64,000 nucleotides of DNA, taken from assembly GCF_003018115.1 (NCBI RefSeq), contig NZ_CP027457.1; one strand, given 5' to 3'. The translations under genes and the position numbers were made by a program. The DNA is from Escherichia coli (GTDB lineage Bacteria; Pseudomonadota; Gammaproteobacteria; Enterobacterales; Enterobacteriaceae). The stretch's first letter is position 1; each line of letters opens with the position of its first letter. This document shows, one piece after another, positions 4,444 to 15,703 of the stretch. The notes below the pieces were generated by a model. It did no database searches, had not been told where the DNA came from, and was given only the letters and a program-made list of their open reading frames with translations.

Positions 4444-6638
4444 AATTTGATAAACCCGCAGGGGAAAACCCGATCGATCAGCTGAAGGTTGTCGGTCGTC
4501 CCCATGACCGCATCGACGGACCGCTGAAAACTACCGGCACGGCACGCTACGCCTACGAATGGCATGAAGAGGCCCCCAACGCCGCCTATGGCTATATCGT
4601 CGGTTCCGCCATTGCCAAAGGACGCCTCACCGCCCTTGATACGGACGCCGCGCAAAAAGCGCCGGGCGTACTGGCTGTCATTACCGCCAGTAACGCCGGG
4701 GCACTCGGCAAAGGCGACAAAAACACCGCCAGGCTGTTAGGCGGCCCCACTATTGAGCACTATCATCAGGCCATTGCGCTGGTAGTGGCCGAGACCTTCG
4801 AACAGGCGCGAGCGGCGGCCTCGCTGGTGCAGGCACACTATCGCCGTAATAAAGGAGCTTACTCCCTGGCGGACGAAAAACAGGCCGTCAATCAGCCGCC
4901 GGAAGACACGCCCGACAAAAACGTCGGTGACTTTGACGGGGCTTTCACCTCCGCTGCGGTGAAGATTGATGCTACCTACACGACCCCGGACCAGAGCCAT
5001 ATGGCGATGGAGCCGCATGCCTCGATGGCCGTCTGGGATGGAAATAAGCTTACTCTCTGGACCTCAAATCAGATGATTGACTGGTGCCGCACCGATCTGG
5101 CAAAAACGCTAAAAGTGCCCGTGGAGAATGTGCGTATTATCTCCCCGTATATCGGCGGAGGGTTTGGCGGCAAGCTGTTCCTGAGAAGCGATGCGCTGCT
5201 GGCAGCCCTCGCCGCCCGAGCGGTGAAACGTCCGGTTAAAGTGATGCTCCCCCGCCCCACTATTCCCAATAACACCACGCACCGCCCCGCCACCCTTCAG
5301 CACTTGCGTATCGGTGCCGACCAGAGCGGGAAAATCACCGCTATCTCACATGAAAGCTGGTCCGGAAACCTGCCCGGCGGCACGCCGGAAACGGCGGTAC
5401 AGCAAAGCGAATTACTCTACGCCGGGGCAAACCGTCATACCGGCCTGCGGCTCGCCACGCTTGATTTGCCGGAAGGGAACGCCATGCGTGCGCCCGGCGA
5501 AGCCCCCGGTCTGATGGCGCTCGAAATCGCGATCGACGAACTGGCGGAAAAAGCGGGCATCGATCCCGTCGAGTTTCGCATCCTGAATGACACTCAGGTT
5601 GACCCCGCCGACCCGACGCGCCGCTTCTCTCGCCGTCAGCTTATTGAGTGCTTGCGCACCGGAGCGGATAAATTTGGCTGGAAGCAGCGCAACGCCACAC
5701 CCGGACAGGTACGCGACGGAGAGTGGCTAGTCGGCCACGGCGTCGCGGCGGGCTTTCGCAATAATCTGCTGGAAAAATCGGGGGCTCGGGTTCACCTCGA
5801 ACCAAACGGCACCGTTACCGTGGAAACGGACATGACCGACATTGGCACCGGCAGCTACACCATTCTGGCCCAGACGGCAGCGGAAATGCTTGGCGTACCG
5901 CTGGAGCAGGTTGCGGTTCACCTCGGCGATTCCAGTTTCCCGGTTTCTGCGGGTTCTGGTGGACAATGGGGCGCGAATACCTCCACCTCCGGCGTTTACG
6001 CCGCCTGTGTGAAGCTTCGCGAAATGATTGCCTCGGCAGTCGGGTTTGATCCTGAGCAGTCGCAGTTTGCCGACGGCAAGATTACCAACGGTACCCGAAG
6101 CGCCATGCTACATGAGGCCACCGCAGGCGGCAGACTGACAGCGGAAGAGAGCATTGAATTCGGAACACTGAGCAAGGAGTACCAGCAGTCGACCTTTGCC
6201 GGGCATTTTGTGGAGGTCGGCGTGCATAGCGCGACGGGAGAAGTTCGGGTCCGGCGTATGCTCGCTGTGTGTGCTGCAGGACGCATCCTGAATCCGAAAA
6301 CTGCACGCAGCCAGGTCATTGGCGCAATGACTATGGGCATGGGCGCGGCACTGATGGAGGAGCTGGCGGTGGATGACCGTTTGGGCTACTTCGTTAATCA
6401 CGATATGGTGGGGTATGAGGTGCCGGTCCATGCGGATATCCCAAAACAGGAGGTGATTTTCCTGGATGATACCGACCCCATATCCTCCCCGATGAAGGCC
6501 AAAGGTGTCGGTGAGCTGGGCCTGTGCGGCGTGAGCGCTGCTATCGCCAACGCGGTGTATAACGCCACCGGTATTCGGGTACGCGATTATCCCATCACTC
6601 TGGATAAGCTGCTCGATAAGCTGCCGGATGTGGTTTAA
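4440..6638 (+). CDS. paoC: Aldehyde oxidoreductase molybdopterin-binding large subunit PaoC
   Basis: 732 aa; overlaps paoB stop; xanthine dehydrogenase family large subunit. Confidence 0.9.
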
Positions 6639-6647
6639 GGAGGAACA

Positions 6648-7604
6648 ATGTCATACCCGCTTTTTGATAAAGACGAACACTGGCATAAGCCAGAGCAGGC
6701 GTTTCTCACCGATGACCACCGTACCATTCTGCGCTTCGCCGTAGAGGCGCTAATGTCCGGTAAAGGAGCGGTGCTGGTGACGCTGGTGGAGATACGCGGC
6801 GGTGCGGCGCGCCCGCTCGGGGCGCAGATGGTGGTGCGCGAAGATGGTCGTTACTGCGGTTTTGTCTCTGGCGGCTGCGTGGAGGCCGCTGCCGCTTTTG
6901 AAGCGCTGGAGATGATGGGCTCAGGCCGCGATCGCGAAATTCGCTATGGCGAAGGTTCGCCGTGGTTTGACATCGTTCTGCCCTGCGGCGGTGGGATCAC
7001 GCTGACGCTCCATAAACTACGCTCGGCACAGCCTCTGCTCGCCGTGCTGAACCGCCTGGAACAGAGAAAACCGGCGGGGCTGCGCTACGATCCGCAAGCA
7101 CAATCGTTGGTGTGCCTGCCCACGCAAACCCGAACGGGCTGGAATCTCAATGGCTTTGAGGTGGGGTTCAGGCCATGCGTCAGGCTGATGATTTACGGAC
7201 GTTCTCTTGAGGCGCAGGCAACCGCGAGTCTTGCAGCAGCCACAGGCTATGACAGCCATATCTTCGATCTTTTTCCGGCCTCAGCCAGCGCTCAGATCGA
7301 TACCGACACGGCGGTCATTTTGCTGTGCCATGATCTCAACCGGGAGCTGCCAGTGTTGCAGGCCGCGCGAGAAGCAAAACCCTTTTATCTCGGCGCATTG
7401 GGCAGCTATCGAACCCACACGTTACGTCTGCAAAAGCTCCACGAGCGGGGATGGTCCAGGGAGGAGACAGCGCAAATCCGGGCACCCGTCGGGATATTCC
7501 CCAAAGCCCGGGATGCGCATACTCTGGCACTCTCCGTGCTGGCAGAAGTCGCCTCTGTACGTCTCCATCAGGAGGAGGATTCATGCCTGCCCCCGTCGTG
7601 CTGA
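6648..7604 (+). CDS. paoD: Molybdenum cofactor insertion chaperone PaoD (XdhC family)
   Basis: 318 aa; follows paoC by 9 nt with AGGAGG RBS. Confidence 0.85.
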   Translation: MSYPLFDKDEHWHKPEQAFLTDDHRTILRFAVEALMSGKGAVLVTLVEIRGGAARPLGAQMVVREDGRYCGFVSGGCVEAAAAFEALEMMGSGRDREIRYGEGSPWFDIVLPCGGGITLTLHKLRSAQPLLAVLNRLEQRKPAGLRYDPQAQSLVCLPTQTRTGWNLNGFEVGFRPCVRLMIYGRSLEAQATASLAAATGYDSHIFDLFPASASAQIDTDTAVILLCHDLNRELPVLQAAREAKPFYLGALGSYRTHTLRLQKLHERGWSREETAQIRAPVGIFPKARDAHTLALSVLAEVASVRLHQEEDSCLPPSC

Positions 7605-7663
7605 TCCTTGCGGCCGGGCGTGGAAAGCGCTTTCTCACCTCCGGGGGAAATACCATAAATTAA
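7583..7663 (+). pseudogene. 26-codon N-terminal stub of a MobA/MocA-like nucleotidyltransferase
   Basis: GAGGAGGATTC-ATG then MPAPVVLILAAGRGKRF (LAAGxGxRF motif), stop after 26 codons; overlaps paoD end. Confidence 0.4.
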
Positions 7664-7782
7664 GAGAAAAATCTGCAGTAGCCGTTTTAGAAAATCACCT
7701 AAATCATTTAAAAGAGCGACCTACCCATAGTGGGTGCTCATCGCCTTGTGTAACTTATTCAGCAACGCGCGCCCTCGCCGGA

Positions 7783-8976
7783 CTAAAGCGCACCGGCCTT
7801 CTGGCGTGCGGTAACAAAGGTCAGTACGCCCGCGCAAAGGAGCAGCACACTACTCATGGCAAACGTACTCTGCCAGCCAAGGCGGTCAAACACGATGCCT
7901 CCTGCCGTTGATCCAAGGGCGATTGAGAGCTGAATCACCGCGACCATGAGCCCGCCTCCGGCTTCGGCGTTGTCAGGCAACGTACGCGCAATCCATGTCC
8001 ACCATCCGGTTGGCGCGGCGGTGGCCAGCATGCCCCAGAGTCCTAACAGCAGCGAGACCGTCCAGACGTGATGCCCGGTAAGCATCAGACCGATGGCAAT
8101 GACGGCCATCAGTCCGGGTATGGCCATCAGCGTGGGGTAGAATTTTCTGTTGAGAAATGTCGAAACAACCAGCGTGCCAATAAAACCGGCCACGCCGATA
8201 ATCAGCAAAATCAACGACAAGCCTAAGGAATTAACCCGTGTCACCGACTCCAGAAACGGGCGCACATAGGTGAATAGCGCAAACTGCCCCATGAAAAACA
8301 GGCCACAAGCTATCATGCCGACCACAACCATGCGGCGGCTAAATAAGCGGAATACCGCGCCACATGACGTGTGGCTTTTATTCGCATCCATGCTGGGCAG
8401 ACTAATGCACTGCCAGATAAAGGCGACAACCGCCATGGGCACCAGGCACAAGAAAGCGCCTCGCCATCCGACCGTAGCCCCCAGATAGCTTCCCAGCGGC
8501 GCGGCCACGACCGTCGCCAGCGCATTACCGGCGTTGAAAATCGCCAGCGCACGCGTGACCTGATGCTGCGGCACCAGACGAATCGCCGTTGCCGCTGACA
8601 TCGACCAGAATCCGCCAATGGCCACACCAATCATCGCACGACCGACCATATACATCAGATAACTGGTAGCCAGCGCAATAATAAGCCCCGATACGGCCAT
8701 CAGAACCGTCATCCCCAGCAGCAGGAACTTACGATTCATCTTTCCAGCTAGCGTTGAAAGCGTCAGGCTGGTCAGAACAGCCAGCGCGCCGGAGATAGCA
8801 ATCCCCTGCCCTGCAAGCCCCTCCGTCACGCCTAAATCGCGGGTAATCGGCGTGAGCAGGCTGACGGGCATAAATTCAGAAGCAATCAGCACAAACACGC
8901 ACAGGGTCATAGCAAAAATACCGCCCCAGTATGCGTGCTGATGATGAGGTGATGGTGTTTGGCTTAGTGTCGACAT
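7783..8976 (-). CDS. MFS family transporter (12 TM)
   Basis: 397 aa highly hydrophobic, MFS-like helices and loop motifs. Confidence 0.75.
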   Translation of the reverse strand: MSTLSQTPSPHHQHAYWGGIFAMTLCVFVLIASEFMPVSLLTPITRDLGVTEGLAGQGIAISGALAVLTSLTLSTLAGKMNRKFLLLGMTVLMAVSGLIIALATSYLMYMVGRAMIGVAIGGFWSMSAATAIRLVPQHQVTRALAIFNAGNALATVVAAPLGSYLGATVGWRGAFLCLVPMAVVAFIWQCISLPSMDANKSHTSCGAVFRLFSRRMVVVGMIACGLFFMGQFALFTYVRPFLESVTRVNSLGLSLILLIIGVAGFIGTLVVSTFLNRKFYPTLMAIPGLMAVIAIGLMLTGHHVWTVSLLLGLWGMLATAAPTGWWTWIARTLPDNAEAGGGLMVAVIQLSIALGSTAGGIVFDRLGWQSTFAMSSVLLLCAGVLTFVTARQKAGAL

Positions 8977-9051
8977 AGTGAAATTTCACAAAGATCAGGA
9001 TAAAAGCCACCTGCCATAGACCGGTGGCTTTGCATCAATTCAGGAGAGGTT

Positions 9052-10188
9052 TTATTTCAGTTTGGTCTGGAAAAATTGTTCGAACTTCGCGAAAGGTATT
9101 TTTCCGGCCACGTTATCGTACAGGTCCACGTGATTTGCCCCTGGTACCACCACCAACTCTTTGTCTTTACTGCCAACCGCCTTGTAAGCATCTTCAGCAA
9201 AATAGCGTGAATGCGCTTTCTCACCGGTCACAATCAGCGTCGGGATGGTGATTTCACTGGCGTATCTCAACAGCGGCATATTCATAAATGACAGCGGCAT
9301 CGTTGCCGTCCACGCCCCGGTAGAGTTAACGGAACGTTCGTGGAAGCCGCGCGGCATGCGATAGTAGTCAAAGAACTCTTTCAGTACCGGATGAGGATTT
9401 GCCGGCAGCGTTTCTGGCAGAATACGCTCGCCCGCACTGACCTTGCCGTTGCTATCGACATTAATATCATGACCACCGTGAGCGAACGTTCCGCTATGCG
9501 CATCCTTCCAGCGCTGTTCATTCAGATATTGCAGAACAGCACGACGGTCGGCGGTAGAATAACGGTCTTTGCCATCCCCCACACCATGACCCATCGCCCG
9601 GCTCATGTCATACATCACGCTGGTAGCTACCGCTTTAACGCGGGTATCCATCGCCACGTCGTTCAGCGCCATGCCGCCCCAGCCACAAATACCGAGCAGC
9701 CCGATACGGTTGCGGTCTACCTCTTTTTGCAGCCCTAAGAAATCCACCGCCGCGCTGAAATCTTCAGTGTTGATATCCGGTGAGGCGACGTTTCGCGGAT
9801 AGCCGCCGCTTTCCCCGGTGTAAGAAGGATCGAACGCCAGGGTAACAAACCCTCGTTCCGCCAGCGTCTGCGCATACAGGCCGCTGGATTGCTCTTTCAC
9901 CGCGCCAAATGGCCCACTGACCGCAATCGCCGCCAGCTTGCGATCGCCACGGTCTTTAGGCAGGTAAAGATCGCCCACTAAGGTGATGCCATATCGGTTC
10001 GGGAACGAGACTTTACGGTGATCGACTTTCTGGCTCTCGGCGAACGTTTTATCCCATTTATCTGTCATGGACACAGGGGCATTAGGATTGGTTGAATCAG
10101 CATAACTCATTGTCGTGACTCCACTTAATGATGCGAAAAGCAGCATGGTCGGCATCGCGGTTTTTAGCGTTCGGGTGAAGGCTTTCAT
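9052..10188 (-). CDS. Secreted alpha/beta hydrolase, Cys-nucleophile (dienelactone-hydrolase-like)
   Basis: Signal peptide MKAFTRTLKTAMPTMLLFASLSG; nucleophile elbow GICGWGG; start set at internal Met. Confidence 0.6.
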   Translation of the reverse strand: MKAFTRTLKTAMPTMLLFASLSGVTTMSYADSTNPNAPVSMTDKWDKTFAESQKVDHRKVSFPNRYGITLVGDLYLPKDRGDRKLAAIAVSGPFGAVKEQSSGLYAQTLAERGFVTLAFDPSYTGESGGYPRNVASPDINTEDFSAAVDFLGLQKEVDRNRIGLLGICGWGGMALNDVAMDTRVKAVATSVMYDMSRAMGHGVGDGKDRYSTADRRAVLQYLNEQRWKDAHSGTFAHGGHDINVDSNGKVSAGERILPETLPANPHPVLKEFFDYYRMPRGFHERSVNSTGAWTATMPLSFMNMPLLRYASEITIPTLIVTGEKAHSRYFAEDAYKAVGSKDKELVVVPGANHVDLYDNVAGKIPFAKFEQFFQTKLK

Positions 10189-10374
10189 AAAAATCCCCAT
10201 AAAAAACAACAGAGAGATACAGGTTTCCGACGGACAACGCTGCGGTGCTTTACTTTGATGGGGTCATTATAGTGAGCAGAATTAGTGCTGATTAGGGGGC
10301 GATTAATGCTAAGATTAATACCATATTGTTATAAATTAATGCGGAGATTGCCGGCATGAAGGGGGGATGTTTCA

Positions 10375-11259
10375 ATGGCGAAAAGGGAGAACTACAACGA
10401 GCTGTACCTGTTTATGCAGGTGGTGCGGGAAGGCAGCTTTACCGCAGCGGCTCAGCGGCTGGGTCTTGCTCAGTCAGGAGTCAGCCGTTCTGTTCGCGAG
10501 CTTGAAGAAAGGCTGGGTGTCCAGCTGCTAGTGCGCACCACGCGTAAACTGTCGCTGACACAAGCAGGCGAGCAGCTCTACCAGAAGACGGCATCTGGAT
10601 TTGAAATGTTAGATCTTGGGCTTGCCACACTGGCGCACTATCGAGAGACGCCCTCCGGCACGGTGCGTATCAATGCCAGCCAGCACGCGATTGATAAATG
10701 CCTGCTGCCAAAGCTGGCGGTATTTAAACAGCGATATCCTGATATCCGGCTTGAACTGATAAATGAGAGCCGGTTCGTCGATATCATCGAGGAAAGATTC
10801 GATGCAGGTGTCCGCCTGGGGCCTGAAGTCGGCCAGGGTATGGTCGCGGTACGCATCACGCCCGATATGGAGATGGCAATTGTGGGGACTCCGGAACATT
10901 TTCGTCGTTATGGTTTTCCGCAAACCCCGGCGGATTTAAAGGCGCATCCCTGTATCGCCTATCAGTTTGCCGACGGCAGCGTATACCAGTGGGAACTCAA
11001 TCAGGATGATAAAAAAATCACTCATCGCCCTGAAGGGCAATGGGCCCTATCCGACAGCTATATGGAAGCAGAAGCCGCCCGGCTGGGCCTCGGATTGGCC
11101 TATGTTCCTGTTGAACTGGTCGCGGATGATTTAGAACACGGTAACCTTATCAGGGTGTTGCAGCGTTACAGCCTGCGAATGGAGGGATTGTTTCTCTATT
11201 ACCCTCATCGCAACGTCTCCCCCGCTCTGCGGATGGTCATTGATACATTGAAAATCTGA
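10375..11259 (+). CDS. LysR-family transcriptional regulator
   Basis: 294 aa; N-terminal HTH FTAAAQRLGLAQSGVSRSVRELEERLG; divergent from hydrolase-MFS genes. Confidence 0.85.
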   Translation: MAKRENYNELYLFMQVVREGSFTAAAQRLGLAQSGVSRSVRELEERLGVQLLVRTTRKLSLTQAGEQLYQKTASGFEMLDLGLATLAHYRETPSGTVRINASQHAIDKCLLPKLAVFKQRYPDIRLELINESRFVDIIEERFDAGVRLGPEVGQGMVAVRITPDMEMAIVGTPEHFRRYGFPQTPADLKAHPCIAYQFADGSVYQWELNQDDKKITHRPEGQWALSDSYMEAEAARLGLGLAYVPVELVADDLEHGNLIRVLQRYSLRMEGLFLYYPHRNVSPALRMVIDTLKI

Positions 11260-11968
11260 ACGTTAACAACGACCGACTCTTCACTGTGCAATATTGTGTC
11301 AGGTAGTCACTCTGCGTTCAATTCCAGGGGCCGCTTTGAGCGAGAAAGAGCGGACTTATCTGTATAAGGGGACTATCCAGCAATGGAGATCACCCAAAAG
11401 AAAAAACTACCTGGCTCCCTCAACAACCTTCATCCGGGAATTTAGCCTCAATCAACATTTTTATATCTGTCAGGTTACTTCATTATGAAAACCGATCAAT
11501 ATCGTTGTTTTTGTAGTAATAATAGAATACGCGTATTTATTCCTCCATTTCTATTAATAACAGCCATAAACTGTTCACTTCACTGATATTTAAAATATGC
11601 ATCCTTTTCCTGCTTTTCAAGTTGTTCAGCGGCGTAAGAAAACGTATTAAATATGAATTCGACGATTTAACCATTTCTGTCTGATTGGTAATCATCTGTG
11701 ATTAATGCTGGTCTATTGATTACGCCAGCATTAACCGCTTAGGGATGTATTCTTCCTGATCATATACAGCCCTCGAAAAAGAGAGAAAATAAAACTGTGT
11801 CCAATATTACTCTACCACTCCAGACCGAAGCATCGGTAGAATTAGCAGAACGACTGGTACAGAAGGTGGGTATAGCGTCATTTGTCGGGCATTCCATTGC
11901 CATCATAATGATAATTTTGAATCAATAGACGTGCTTCTTGATCATGTCTTAAAATTATACCATGAGCC

Positions 11969-12199
11969 TTATGAAGCATCATTTTTACTGACTGGTGTTA
12001 ACTTTGCTATCATATAAACTCTGTTCTTAAAAAACGCGCCCAGAATTTTATATGATTTCCCTTGTTTTTCTGCCTGTAAAGAAATTTCTTTTTCAGTGCT
12101 GTCAATAGTTGAACCGACGGCAGTAATCGTTTTGGCGACGCTACTGAATGATAATAAAGACAGTGCAACCACAACAATTAAAGAACAGATAGTATTCAT
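11969..12199 (-). CDS. Small secreted protein, DUF1471 (BhsA/McbA/YdgH-like) candidate
   Basis: Signal peptide MNTICSLIVVVALSLLSFSSVA then ~55 aa mature domain; start at internal Met of ORF 11969..12247. Confidence 0.45.
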   Translation of the reverse strand: MNTICSLIVVVALSLLSFSSVAKTITAVGSTIDSTEKEISLQAEKQGKSYKILGAFFKNRVYMIAKLTPVSKNDAS

Positions 12200-12412
12200 G
12201 CTAATTCTCCTGACAATTAAGAGGATGAGTTTTATATATAAAGGCATTAAACATGAGTCATATTTACTTCCTGTGAAAATAATCTTTCTGTAATTAAACC
12301 TTCATCTCCTTCGGGGTGAGCAATACATAATGCATCTTGCTATGAAAAACACAGGGATATATAAATCTTCCTTCTGACCTATTTAATAAAACGTGAATGT
12401 AAAAGTTATTCT

Positions 12413-13135
12413 TCAGTTTGCAGATGCAGTGGGTCTGATGGTAATTTCGGTTGTATCAACGCTTTCGGGAGATTCAATAATATGCCTTACCGCACGGGCA
12501 ATATCCGCAGGTTGAAGTGCAACAGAACGGTAGGAGTCCATTGCCTTCATGGTTTCCACATGGGTAATGGTTGAAGCCAGTTCACTTTCGACAACGCCAG
12601 GATTTACGCAGGTCACACGGATTTTCGAGCTTTCCTGCCGTAAGCCATCAGAAATAGCCCGTACTGCAAATTTTGATGCACAATAGACTGCGCCTGTGGG
12701 CACAACAGAAAGGGCACCAATAGAACCAAGATTGATTATCTGACCGGAACCCTGTGCTTCCATCACCGGAAGTACAGCGCCAATTCCCCACAGTACACCT
12801 TTGATATTCACGTCAATAGTGAGCGCCCATTCATCTTGTTTTCCTGCTGCAAGCGGTGAAAGCGGCATAACGCCCGCATTATTGATAAGAACATCAACTC
12901 GCCCCCAGCTATCCAGCGCTGCTTGCACGAAATCGGCCATGGACTGTCGGTCTGTGACATCCAACTCCCGCGCTTTAGCAATTCCTCCTGCGCGGCAGAT
13001 TTCGGTTGCAATGGCTTCGATACGCTCAACTCTGCGTGCTCCCAGTAAAACCTTTGCACCTGTCGTTCCAAGCTCTCTGGCAATACCTTCCCCAATACCA
13101 CTTGATGCGCCGGTAATTAATATGACCTTATCCAT
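12413..13135 (-). CDS. Short-chain dehydrogenase/reductase (SDR)
   Basis: TGASSGIG NAD(P)-binding motif, YCASK catalytic motif; start at MDKVILITG. Confidence 0.85.
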   Translation of the reverse strand: MDKVILITGASSGIGEGIARELGTTGAKVLLGARRVERIEAIATEICRAGGIAKARELDVTDRQSMADFVQAALDSWGRVDVLINNAGVMPLSPLAAGKQDEWALTIDVNIKGVLWGIGAVLPVMEAQGSGQIINLGSIGALSVVPTGAVYCASKFAVRAISDGLRQESSKIRVTCVNPGVVESELASTITHVETMKAMDSYRSVALQPADIARAVRHIIESPESVDTTEITIRPTASAN

Positions 13136-13233
13136 TACGTTCTCCTTCAAATGTGTTCGGAGAGAGAATAGAACTTTATGATTGGTTCCAGTATCCTGCT
13201 TTCAATGTACTCAGTGGTTAGCGGCATTAAACA

Positions 13234-14133
13234 ATGAAAATCGATCTTAATCTTTTACCCATTTTTATCGCGGTAGCAGAAGAGAGTAATTTTAGTAAAG
13301 CCGCCGCACGACTGGGCGTTACCCGTTCAGCGGTCAGTCAGGGAATAAGACGTCTTGAAGATGCATTCGGGACAATGCTTGTAATGCGGACCACGCGCTC
13401 AGTTAATTTGACGGAAGCGGGAGAACGGCTGCATAAATCGTTGTCATTACCTTTATCCGGTATTGAGGCAGCGTTCGAAGAGATGGTCTCTGACCATGTA
13501 CCACGTGGACATCTCAGAATCGCGGTGACGTCGATAGCAGAAGAATTTCTTTCAGGTCCGCTAATCGCTTCGTTTGCAGCTGCCAATCCAGCCGTTACGC
13601 TTGATATTGTTGTCACGGATGAGGAATTCGATATCGTTGCCGCAGGTTACGATGCTGGCGTAAGGCTCGGAGAGGTCATTGAAAAAGACATGATTGCTGT
13701 TCCCCTTACCGGCAGGCAGCGTGAAATGGTCGTTGCCTCTCCCTCCTATCTCGCAGCCAACAGCACACCTGTTCATCCGCGTGAACTTGTGAATCATAAG
13801 TGTATCGGCTGGCGTCAGTCCCCGGAGGTTGCGCCTTATCGCTGGCCATTTGAAGAAAACGGGAGAGCTTTCGACCTTGCGATTGAACCGCAGATTACGA
13901 CTAATGATCTGCGTCTGATGTTGCGGCTGGCTCTTGCCGGTGGAGGAATAACAATTGCCACTCAGGAAACTTTCAGGCCGTATATTGAAAGCGGTAAGCT
14001 TGTATCTCTGCTTGATGACTTTCTTCCACAATTTCCGGGCTTCTATCTGTATTTCCCACAGCGTCGCAATATTGCACCAAAGCTCCGCGCCCTGATTGAC
14101 CACGTCAAGGAATGGCGGCAGCAATTGGCTTAA
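13234..14133 (+). CDS. LysR-family transcriptional regulator (possibly the intact counterpart of K-12 yagP fragment)
   Basis: 299 aa; HTH FSKAAARLGVTRSAVSQGIRRLE; divergent from SDR. Confidence 0.8.
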   Translation: MKIDLNLLPIFIAVAEESNFSKAAARLGVTRSAVSQGIRRLEDAFGTMLVMRTTRSVNLTEAGERLHKSLSLPLSGIEAAFEEMVSDHVPRGHLRIAVTSIAEEFLSGPLIASFAAANPAVTLDIVVTDEEFDIVAAGYDAGVRLGEVIEKDMIAVPLTGRQREMVVASPSYLAANSTPVHPRELVNHKCIGWRQSPEVAPYRWPFEENGRAFDLAIEPQITTNDLRLMLRLALAGGGITIATQETFRPYIESGKLVSLLDDFLPQFPGFYLYFPQRRNIAPKLRALIDHVKEWRQQLA

Positions 14134-14259
14134 ATGTCTGCACCTACATTGCCTGATGTCAGAACAGTATTTTGATTAATTGCCAGGGTTACAATGGCAC
14201 AAATACGGCACAGGAGGAAACGTGGTGTATTTAAATATGGGGTAACTACTTGATTTAAA

Positions 14260-14335
14260 TGGTGCCGATAATAGGAGTCGAACCTACGACCTTCGCATTA
14301 CGAATGCGCTGCTCTACCAACTGAGCTATATCGGC
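14260..14335 (-). tRNA. thrW: tRNA-Thr (anticodon CGU)
   Basis: Reverse complement reads GCCGATATAGCTCAGTTGGTAGAGCAGCGCATTCGTAATGCG...TTCGACTCCTATTATCGGCACCA; cloverleaf with CGT anticodon and CCA end. Confidence 0.9.
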
Positions 14336-14449
14336 CCTGAAAGGACATGTTCACGAACGTGAATCACGGTGGACAAGGTTAAAACTAACCGGGCGATGCG
14401 TCAATGGCCTTGTGAATCAAATGGCTACTTTTGCATCACCCGGTTTTAT

Positions 14450-15703
14450 TTACGCACGAATGGTGTAATCACCAATGCCGATCCACTTGTAAGTGGTCAG
14501 TGCTTCCAGCCCCATTGGGCCACGCGCGTGGAGTTTTTGTGTGCTTACCGCCACTTCCGCGCCCAGTCCAAACTGGCCGCCGTCGGTAAAACGCGTAGAG
14601 GCGTTAACGTAAACAGCGGACGAATCCACTTCGTTAACAAAACGCTGGGCGTTGCGCATATCGCGGGTCAGGATCGCATCGGAGTGTTGCGTGCCGTGTT
14701 CACGAATATGGGCGATGGCATCGTCAAGATCGCTGACGATTTTGACGTTCAAATCTAATGACAGAAACTCATCGTCATACTCTTCGGCTTTAACCGCCAC
14801 CACCTTCGCAGGGCCTGTCTGCAACTGCGCCAGCGCAGCTGCATCTGCGTGTAACGTCACGCCGCTTTCCGCCATTTGTTTGCTTAATGCGGGCAGGAAG
14901 CTATCGGCGATGTTTTTATTCACCAGCAACGTTTCTACCGTATTACATGTGCTCGGACGCTGGGTTTTCGCGTTGACGATCACTTTTAATGCTTCAGCGA
15001 TCTCTGCACTTTCATCAACGTAAATATGGCATACGCCTATACCACCAGTGATCACCGGGATCGTCGACTGCTCGCGGCACAGTTTATGCAAACCAGCCCC
15101 GCCGCGCGGGATCAGCATGTCGATGTATTTATCCATACGCAGCATTTCACTGACCAGCGCACGGTCAGGATTATCAATCGCCTGCACGGCACCCGCCGGT
15201 AAGCCACAGGATTTCAGGGCGTCCTGAATCACCGCCACCGTTGCAGCGTTAGTGCGACACGTTTCTTTGCCGCCGCGCAGGATCACTGCGTTACCTGTTT
15301 TCAGGCACAGCGAAGCGACATCAACCGTCACGTTCGGGCGCGCTTCATAAATCACGCCAATAACCCCCAGCGGTACGCGACGACGCTCAAGACGCAGGCC
15401 GCTGTCCAGTACGCCGCCATCGATTACCTGCCCCACCGGATCGGCGAGGTTGCACACCTGGCGCACATCATCGGCAATGCCTTTCAGCCGTGCGGGCGTC
15501 AGTGCCAGACGGTCAAGCATCGCTTCGCTAAGGCCATTGGCTCGCGCGTCAGCAACATCCTGGGCGTTAGCGTTGAGGATGATTTCGCTTTGTGCTTCCA
15601 GTTCATCGGCGATTTTTTCCAGCACACGATTTTTTTCGCGGCTGGAGAGTTGCGCTAATTTATACGAGGCTTGCTTCGCGGCAATGCCCATTTGTTCCAG
15701 CAT
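14450..15703 (-). CDS. proA: Gamma-glutamyl phosphate reductase
   Basis: 417 aa; [19 protein letters not shown]...; synteny proB-proA-thrW. Confidence 0.95.

Follow-up and report, generated by a model that had tools for sequence, protein, structure and literature searches.

A block of two LysR-headed cassettes between paoD and thrW of Escherichia coli corresponds to O island 9 and appears to have been lost from K-12-type genomes

The present study deals with a 64,000-nt stretch of Escherichia coli DNA (called the window below) and, within it, with a block of genes that includes two LysR regulators, examined at positions 7783-14133, between paoD and thrW. The closest described system is O island 9 (OI-9) of enterohaemorrhagic E. 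coli (EHEC) O157:H7. In strain EDL933, this island comprises two LysR regulators (z0342 and z0346), an oxidoreductase (z0343), two hypothetical genes (z0344 and z0345), a hydrolase (z0347) and a transporter of the major facilitator superfamily (MFS; z0348) (PMC6768210, PMC8565820). One of the regulators, OvrB (z0346), binds the LEE1 promoter of the locus of enterocyte effacement (LEE) and activates ler (Liu et al. 2019, PMC6768210). OvrB promotes adherence and mouse colonisation, and deletion of any of the six other OI-9 genes left adherence and LEE expression unchanged (PMC6768210). From its clade distribution, the island was read by these authors as acquired twice, independently, by pathogenic clades (PMC6768210). 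The published account is that of one acquired island, of which only the action of OvrB on LEE1 was characterised; the two-cassette structure, the deletion origin of the K-12 gene yagP, the hydrolase chemistry and the phage and plasmid copies described below do not figure in it. These papers surfaced through the EDL933 Z-number locus tags; ECs0305-0311 tags and yagP gave nothing functional.

A second relative occurs in K-12 itself, where the LysR regulator PgrR (YcjZ) is encoded divergently from YcjY, an alpha/beta-hydrolase with a Cys at its nucleophile elbow. Among the listed targets of PgrR is ycjY-ymjDC-mpaA, and a regulatory role in peptidoglycan recycling is also ascribed to it (PMC5934670).

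The six genes named in the original prediction for this DNA, which was made from the sequence alone, were all found where it had placed them. Likewise, the ORF (open reading frame) map displayed the two divergent LysR-target pairs that it had described, with intergenic regions of 186 bp and 98 bp. The genes, together with the neighbouring tRNA gene, are as follows.

7783-8976, minus strand: MFS transporter of the 12-transmembrane-segment type, NepI/SotB-like efflux subfamily, z0348 orthologue (Pfam MFS_1, E=4e-37)
9052-10209, minus strand: alpha/beta-hydrolase ORF, z0347 orthologue; likely start M8 at 10188, giving 9052-10188 and 378 aa
10375-11259, plus strand: LysR1, z0346/OvrB orthologue (HTH_1 and LysR_substrate domains)
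11969-12247, minus strand: small ORF, probably z0344; likely start at 12199 (76 aa), which AGGAG precedes by 7 nt
12413-13150, minus strand: short-chain dehydrogenase/reductase (SDR), z0343 orthologue; likely start at 13135, giving 240 aa, with AGGAG ahead of it
13234-14133, plus strand: LysR2, z0342 orthologue and full-length form of K-12 yagP (Pfam; named yagP in strain Sakai)
14260-14335, minus strand: thrW, tRNA-Thr(CGU) (ARAGORN and Rfam), its 3' end toward the block

The block ends 126 bp from thrW, and proA and proB lie beyond the tRNA gene. This block is OI-9, and the locus has therefore largely been described already. It occupies the same paoD-thrW position, shares the seven-ORF content and the z0342-z0348 order, and measures 6,136 bp against 6,132/6,133 bp for the published island; it is the same locus in another strain. 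Genes ECs_0305-0311 of Sakai are arranged in the same order as in the window, and LysR1 is 98% identical to ECs_0309 over 294 aa (the equivalence of ECs_0309 and z0346 being deduced from gene order). On these alignments, LysR1 can be taken as the OvrB orthologue. The original prediction had recognised neither the block as OI-9 nor LysR1 as OvrB. The two strains differ at thrW, which is the integration site of CP4-6 in K-12 and of the P4-like prophage Sp2 in Sakai, whereas it is unoccupied in the window strain.

All six ORFs are intact. Compared with diverged homologues, dN/dS was 0.04-0.08 in four of the five large genes and 0.26 in the small ORF; the MFS gene gave no ratio, dS being saturated. 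Such low values denote strong purifying selection in four of the five large genes, and the block ORFs are functional genes and not chance ORFs. None of the six proteins matched a PADLOC model of anti-phage defence. An Rfam scan of 7000-15000 returned the tRNA only, and a promoter and terminator scan, whose counts were no higher than in shuffled sequence, was not used as evidence.

According to the original prediction, K-12 has the CP4-6 prophage and a truncated LysR gene, yagP, at this place. This agrees with the MG1655 genome, in which CP4-6 resides in thrW, a 136-aa yagP abuts paoD, and the following segment of the window has no counterpart.

7659-13794, no strand: segment missing from K-12, equal to OI-9 (6,136 bp; blastn against MG1655)

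The gene order in MG1655 is proA, thrW, CP4-6 prophage, intF, yagP, paoD. By blastn, the parts of the window that can be aligned with it are 5001-7658 and 13795-14311, with nothing in between. The two break points (7658/13795) have ATAA in common, a microhomology of 4-5 bp, and the K-12 state can therefore be read as a 6,136-bp microhomology deletion of 7659-13794. The yagP gene itself points in the same direction. Residues 24-136 of K-12 YagP correspond to residues 187-299 of LysR2 with 97% identity, so that YagP represents the last 113 codons of LysR2, without the helix-turn-helix domain, preceded by 23 codons supplied by the paoD flank. Because yagP is an N-terminally truncated LysR2 whose break is the junction itself, K-12 must have lost the block. 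According to these comparisons, the K-12 state would have arisen by a single ATAA-microhomology deletion joining the paoD 3' flank to LysR2 codon 187. The insertion of CP4-6 at thrW is independent of this deletion.

Among 5,426 complete E. coli genomes, the K-12 junction was found in 2,683 and the intact paoD-MFS junction in 912, while 425 had the block in one piece to an extent of at least 80%; the other genomes matched neither junction query. In some E. coli alleles, the first LysR-headed half of the block (cassette 1, see below) was kept and the second (cassette 2) was lost or replaced. At locus L107 (10093-15307), the place of cassette 2 is taken by the toxin-antitoxin genes AbiEii/AbiEi together with a reverse transcriptase of 1,069 aa. 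Locus L106 (5740-6209) displays a different deletion, restricted to the SDR side; here 77 codons of LysR2 survive as a stump, and beside them, where thrW would be expected, stands a gene of 112 nt with the annotation tRNA-Ser. That half of the block which is nearer to thrW is thus a variable spot among strains. An island or prophage integrated at thrW was considered as a description of the block and rejected: no integrase ORF and no thrW-derived repeat on the paoD side were found, and boundary repeats were at chance level only.

Comparison with other genera showed that the block is not one unit and consists of two independent LysR-headed cassettes joined by an AT-rich spacer.

7766-11344, no strand: cassette 1, a transferable unit with MFS, hydrolase, LysR1 and their shared promoter region (collinearity with Kluyvera)
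11345-11981, no strand: AT-rich spacer, part of neither cassette (0.64 kb, 33-40% GC)
11982-14133, no strand: cassette 2, a transferable unit with LysR2, SDR and small secreted protein (collinear with prophage and plasmid loci)

Kluyvera genomosp. 1 was collinear with the window over 7766-11344 only (3.58 kb, 91.7% nucleotide identity), its flanks being different. Cassette 2 was collinear, at 78% nucleotide identity and with identical spacing, with loci of a P2-like prophage and of plasmids (L017-L019); in Pantoea chromosomes, LysR2 and SDR were collinear at 85% and the small ORF was absent. The division into two units follows from the fact that collinearity with other genera stops at 7766/11344 and at 11982.

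Cassette 1 was encountered in several other settings. Its three genes and their conserved intergenic region also occur in Klebsiella michiganensis and Yersinia frederiksenii, and copies are carried by plasmids of Klebsiella, Pantoea and Kosakonia. The Salmonella IncFIB plasmid of L011 has its copy of cassette 1 (4871-8644) directly beside a Tn3-family transposase and a recombinase. The complete Peduovirus (P2-like) Yersinia phages vB_YpM_115 and vB_YpM_117 hold the whole cassette between tail-fibre-assembly and sheath genes, which is where P2 has its variable Z/fun cargo. In this respect they resemble P2 phages with morons at the tail-fibre/sheath junction, whereas the window copy is chromosomal and free of neighbouring phage genes. 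Cassette 1 is also contained in a lambdoid prophage of E. coli (L006/L007, 4946-8508), beside an integrase near yjjG-rimI-holD. The vB_YpM_115 copy (L010, 15680-19242) and the lambdoid one are 98.6% identical at the nucleotide level, one allele being therefore the cargo of two unrelated types of temperate phages. Cassette 2 was likewise found in a P2-like prophage and on plasmids.

For the hydrolase of cassette 1, the best matches among solved structures were PA2218 of P. aeruginosa (2HDW, E=6e-125) and YcjY of E. coli (5XB6, E=2e-43), which places it in a PA2218/YcjY clade of alpha/beta-hydrolases. Both are structural-genomics entries without assigned activity, and PA2218 informs on fold, not on function. 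The family is large, with 2,420 representatives (50% clustering) at E<1e-10. Orthologues with 50-64% identity were recorded in Proteobacteria, Bacteroidota, Firmicutes, Campylobacterota, Elusimicrobia, Verrucomicrobia and Melainabacteria-like metagenome-assembled genomes. The Cys nucleophile elbow announced by the original prediction was borne out: the only Cys of the protein lies in the motif GICGWGG, where serine esterases have their nucleophile Ser and YcjY the Cys of its GICAG in the alignment, and is invariant, together with His353, in 80 cross-phylum orthologues. In the alignment of these 80 sequences and the query, Cys168 (GICGWGG) and His353 (GANHVDLYD) were conserved in 81/81 sequences and Asp194 in 80/81. 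Further invariant positions were VKEQ 97-100, D120/S122/S127, D149, D181/R183, R226, Y276 and D355, alongside which D358 was also conserved. Among distant family members without the Cys, 2/3 also lacked the His. The Cys168-His353 pair is thus strongly supported by the alignment. Asp194, situated just after strand 184-190 of the model as in the triads of dienelactone hydrolase (DLH) type, would be the catalytic acid completing a predicted triad.

The lactone or ester hydrolase suggested by the original prediction stays a putative assignment, and likeness to better-known enzymes is limited. The Pfam DLH profile (PF01738) did not match the hydrolase, and the profile of UilS-type N-acyl-homoserine lactonases (NCBIfam NF047920) gave a partial match of 64 bits against a 400-bit cut-off. 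Dienelactone hydrolases, DcsB and GrgF are only ~20% identical to it, and in comparison with them the VKEQ, D120/S122/S127 and R226/Y276 motifs are specific to the hydrolase clade. Moreover, the fungal DcsB and GrgF are trans-acting hydrolases of cytosolic polyketide pathways, unlike the presumably exported enzyme of the block. Its structural neighbours include feruloyl and other carbohydrate esterases.

The start at 10188 is preceded by GGGGA 5 nt upstream and is the one used by most public gene calls. It opens on a putative export signal.

10099-10188, minus strand: hydrolase codons 1-30, MKAFTRTLKTAMPTMLLFASLSGVTTMSYA/D, a predicted signal peptide of Sec type, conserved at protein level across Enterobacterales genera

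Judged by sequence pattern, the N-terminus MKAFTRTLKT-AMPTMLLFASLSGVTTM-SYA/D could be read as the basic n-region, hydrophobic core and AXA-like site of such a peptide. The signal peptide of the original prediction is consistent with this conservation at protein level across genera and with the hydrophobic N-terminal extension observed in 64/80 orthologues. Tat-type and lipobox variants of the N-terminus occur in the family, as do YcjY-like short forms without extension. We conclude that the enzyme is an alpha/beta-hydrolase of the Cys-His(-Asp) type, probably exported. In RefSeq, PGAP starts the gene at M34 (352 aa; window 9052-10110; L001 7452-8510), losing the signal region, and database entries therefore look cytoplasmic.

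The transporter is 39% identical to NepI and scored 294 bits on the NCBIfam NepI profile (NF007578), whose cut-off is 584 bits, indicating a related protein and not an equivalog. Its nearest solved structure is SotB (6KKI), and its best family and structure matches were all efflux proteins (NepI, SotB sugar efflux, Cmx/CmrA). It shares the full-length MFS_1 fold of these DHA1 pumps, yet constitutes a separate subfamily. The original prediction had the hydrolase coupled to a transporter; an MFS protein is indeed present and, being of the NepI/SotB/Cmx efflux type, makes export likelier than uptake.

LysR1 displays both domains expected of a LysR regulator (HTH_1, E=1e-23; LysR_substrate, E=5e-35) and is 41% identical to PgrR, the hydrolase being 34% identical to YcjY. 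Since the gene for PgrR lies divergently beside ycjY, which PgrR is reported to regulate, OvrB and the hydrolase constitute, as a unit, a paralogous copy of the PgrR/YcjY pair. The likeness extends to the layout and to the hydrolase clade. Yet YcjY is devoid of both the signal peptide and the WDKTF segment at the N-terminus, and its operon continues with ymjD, ymjC and mpaA, where that of the block has an MFS pump.

Three candidate control elements were recognised between the two divergent genes of cassette 1.

10216-10251, minus strand: conserved 36-nt leader AAAGCACCGCAGCGTTGTCCGTCGGAAACCTGTATC (hydrolase strand), between the -10 hexamer and the hydrolase start codon
10266-10271, minus strand: TATAAT, a perfect -10 hexamer for a putative promoter of the hydrolase-MFS operon, unchanged in four diverged cassettes
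10318-10332, no strand: candidate LysR1/OvrB site ATAACAATATGGTAT, a dyad with T-N11-A at about -66 from the inferred start, conserved across genera

The putative promoter has a poor -35. The leader is near-invariant in E. coli, Klebsiella, Yersinia and the prophage copy, with variable bases on either side; it may act as another LysR site or as a leader of the mRNA, and, as no Rfam family matched it, it is not a known riboswitch.

The surroundings of hydrolase orthologues were surveyed in 80 diverse genomes (L026-L105). At these 80 loci, the neighbours were LysR regulators (33, mostly divergent), a cyclophilin-like PF18050 protein (24), a cupin and carboxymuconolactone-decarboxylase fusion (21), MFS transporters (19), hexapeptide acetyltransferases (18), AraC regulators (16) and FMN reductases (8). 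Such company resembles that of stress or detoxification genes more than that of a catabolic pathway. The PF18050 protein, the commonest same-strand neighbour after LysR, is missing from the E. coli block; besides the 24/80 of the survey, copies were found at L008 (8601-9104), L020 (4576-4998) and L021 (4493-4858).

Cassette 2 has a divergent promoter region of its own.

13136-13233, no strand: SDR/LysR2 divergent promoter region, 98 bp, conserved in length and sequence in Pantoea, prophage and plasmid copies

LysR2 contains HTH_1 (E=9e-22) and LysR_substrate (E=2e-35), and only weak T-N11-A candidates were seen in the intergenic region. The SDR (Pfam adh_short, E=7e-54) carries the motifs TGASSGIG and YCASK and is a classical NAD(P)-dependent short-chain dehydrogenase/reductase; its nearest structure is 3TFO (E=7e-122), an uncharacterised S. 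meliloti protein. The small secreted protein of the original prediction is present as a 76-aa product with a predicted signal peptide, and its ORF is part of the SDR cassette. This protein shares 60% identity with the product of the ORF downstream of the SDR gene in L017 and is 40% identical to a Salmonella plasmid protein scoring 34 bits on Pfam PF07338. Alone, it reached 14.5 bits against a 27-bit cut-off for PF07338 and a weak NCBIfam BhsA match (E=1.5e-4). Through this transitive homologue, it can be regarded as a divergent YdgH/BhsA/McbA-like (DUF1471) protein. The cassette 1 copy of L011 contains an extra 69-aa YdgH/BhsA-like gene between LysR and hydrolase, and a DUF1471-type small protein therefore pairs with either cassette across hosts.

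Gene debris was detected in the spacer between the two cassettes.

11489-11554, plus strand: ykgR-like remnant whose product ends in KPINIVVFVVIIEYAYLFLHFY before the stop codon (tblastn and blastn against K-12 ykgR, 86% aa and 87% nt identity)
11624-11763, no strand: piece resembling the K-12 ykgL/ykgO 3' region, 74% identical, directly after the ykgR remnant

About 10 N-terminal codons of the ykgR-like remnant are gone, and PGAP labels it a pseudogene. Together, the two remnants look like a second, decayed copy of the ykgR-ykgMO-ykgL locus from which ykgMO disappeared. ORFs of 64 and 52 aa in the spacer had no family support and were treated as non-genes.

The explanation that best accounts for these observations combines the identity with OI-9, the K-12 deletion, the division into two cassettes and a mechanism for each cassette; as a whole, we give it a probability of roughly 0.6. 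For cassette 1, OvrB would bind the conserved dyad at about -66 and control the divergent hydrolase-MFS operon. The hydrolase would leave the cytoplasm via Sec and, in the periplasm, its Cys168-His353-Asp194 residues would cleave an ester, thioester, lactone or amide bond in an exogenous small molecule. The NepI/SotB-type pump would expel this molecule, or its product, from the cytoplasm, and hydrolase, pump and regulator would together compose an inducible and mobile detoxification module. In LEE-positive strains, OvrB would additionally have been recruited to activate LEE1/ler, the activation itself being published. For cassette 2, LysR2 would control the SDR, an NAD(P)-dependent enzyme, as well as the small secreted protein of DUF1471 type. 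The core of the cassette 1 scheme, namely control of the operon by OvrB on a small-molecule cue, periplasmic cleavage and export of the compound or product by the pump, is advanced tentatively, at somewhat less than even odds.

Several observations weigh against this scheme. Single z0347 and z0348 deletions in O157 had no adherence or LEE phenotype, a result that is uninformative on detoxification and brings no positive support (PMC6768210). A literature search on YcjY, PA2218, 2HDW and 5XB6 found no activity reported for these close relatives. The argument for Asp194 as catalytic acid consists of its conservation and its place after strand 6, and the direction of transport by an MFS protein is not readable from sequence. 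PgrR, the nearest characterised paralogue of OvrB, is a reported repressor, so that OvrB might either activate or repress the operon. Finally, when the candidate OvrB operator was sought in the LEE region of Sakai, 3 matches were obtained at 3 mismatches, versus 2.9 expected, and 0 in the LEE1 promoter, which lends no backing to a site common to both promoters; the published LEE1 binding and the predicted native site are not yet reconciled.

Among the alternatives, the one that fares best is quite unlikely. Cassette 1 might serve nutrient scavenging, the hydrolase splitting an ester or amide conjugate to free a part that the cell can use, the MFS protein importing this part and the substrate inducing LysR1. 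An exported hydrolase followed by a transporter in one LysR-governed operon is indeed also a classic layout for catabolic uptake, and the esterases among the structural neighbours of the hydrolase would fit. However, the transporter groups with the efflux proteins NepI, SotB and Cmx/CmrA, no downstream catabolic enzymes are linked to the cassette in Enterobacterales contexts, and it is rather for resistance or detoxification genes that carriage on plasmids, as a phage moron or beside a Tn3-family transposase is typical.

Less probable still is that cassette 1 works as pgrR/ycjY does, with LysR1 as a repressor and the Cys hydrolase acting in the periplasm on cell-wall-derived peptides. The identities of 41% and 34%, the same divergent layout and the reported role of PgrR in peptidoglycan recycling speak for it. 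Moreover, periplasmic Cys enzymes acting on murein do exist, L,D-transpeptidases for example. Yet YcjY itself has no demonstrated substrate, mpaA, mppA or ycjG stood beside cassette 1 in none of the contexts seen, and the partner here is an efflux-type MFS protein.

As for the origin of the locus, the published view implies that OI-9 was inserted into pathogenic lineages after their split from commensals, the K-12 arrangement being ancestral, which we consider highly improbable. It draws on the two independent acquisitions deduced from clade distribution (PMC6768210), and it is in keeping with the mobility of both cassettes in other settings and with the AT-richness of the spacer. However, the yagP stump breaks at the junction, and an insertion cannot make a complete in-frame LysR gene out of a stump. 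In addition, the flanks of the block show no integrase, att repeat or tRNA-end duplication, and the deletion junction is identical in 2,683 genomes. Acquisition after divergence thus conflicts with the yagP stump as regards K-12-type genomes, in which the stump indicates loss of the block; an older acquisition may have preceded the K-12 deletion.

That the block is decaying accessory DNA, functionless now except for OvrB, is barely credible: in the assays used, deletion of 6/7 OI-9 genes was without phenotype (PMC6768210), half of the E. coli genomes lost the block and the spacer holds pseudogene debris, yet six ORFs are intact with dN/dS of 0.04-0.08 in 4/5 large genes (the MFS ratio was not computable), promoter regions are conserved across genera, and the hydrolase keeps 50-60% identity from one phylum to another, its catalytic residues being invariant. 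The efflux-type transporter, the lack of linked catabolic or murein genes and purifying selection thus make scavenging, a murein role and non-function the less likely readings, and the detoxification scheme is retained.

The locus was already known as OI-9 and OvrB as a LEE activator, and no new field is opened here. What is added is that K-12-type genomes lost OI-9, so that, where K-12 is concerned, it is wrong to see in it an island that pathogens gained. Since cassette 1 is kept in bacteria without LEE and travels on phages, on plasmids and beside a Tn3-family transposase, LEE activation by OvrB is probably a secondary recruitment. The ligand of OvrB is then best sought through the hydrolase and the pump. 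The hydrolase clade, which is very widespread and has two crystal structures (PA2218 and YcjY) and a predicted triad, represents a tractable target for function discovery. A broader proposal, to which we attach only a low likelihood, is that the native task of OvrB is the inducer-dependent control of z0347-z0348, that the compound handled by hydrolase and pump is a chemical cue switching on LEE and type III secretion in EHEC and enteropathogenic E. coli, and that the cassette is a mobile detoxification or resistance determinant across Enterobacterales. If so, this small molecule would be an unrecognised cue for LEE acting through OvrB, and the spread of the cassette by P2-like and lambdoid phages, by plasmids and next to a Tn3-family transposase would amount to mobile resistance to that compound.

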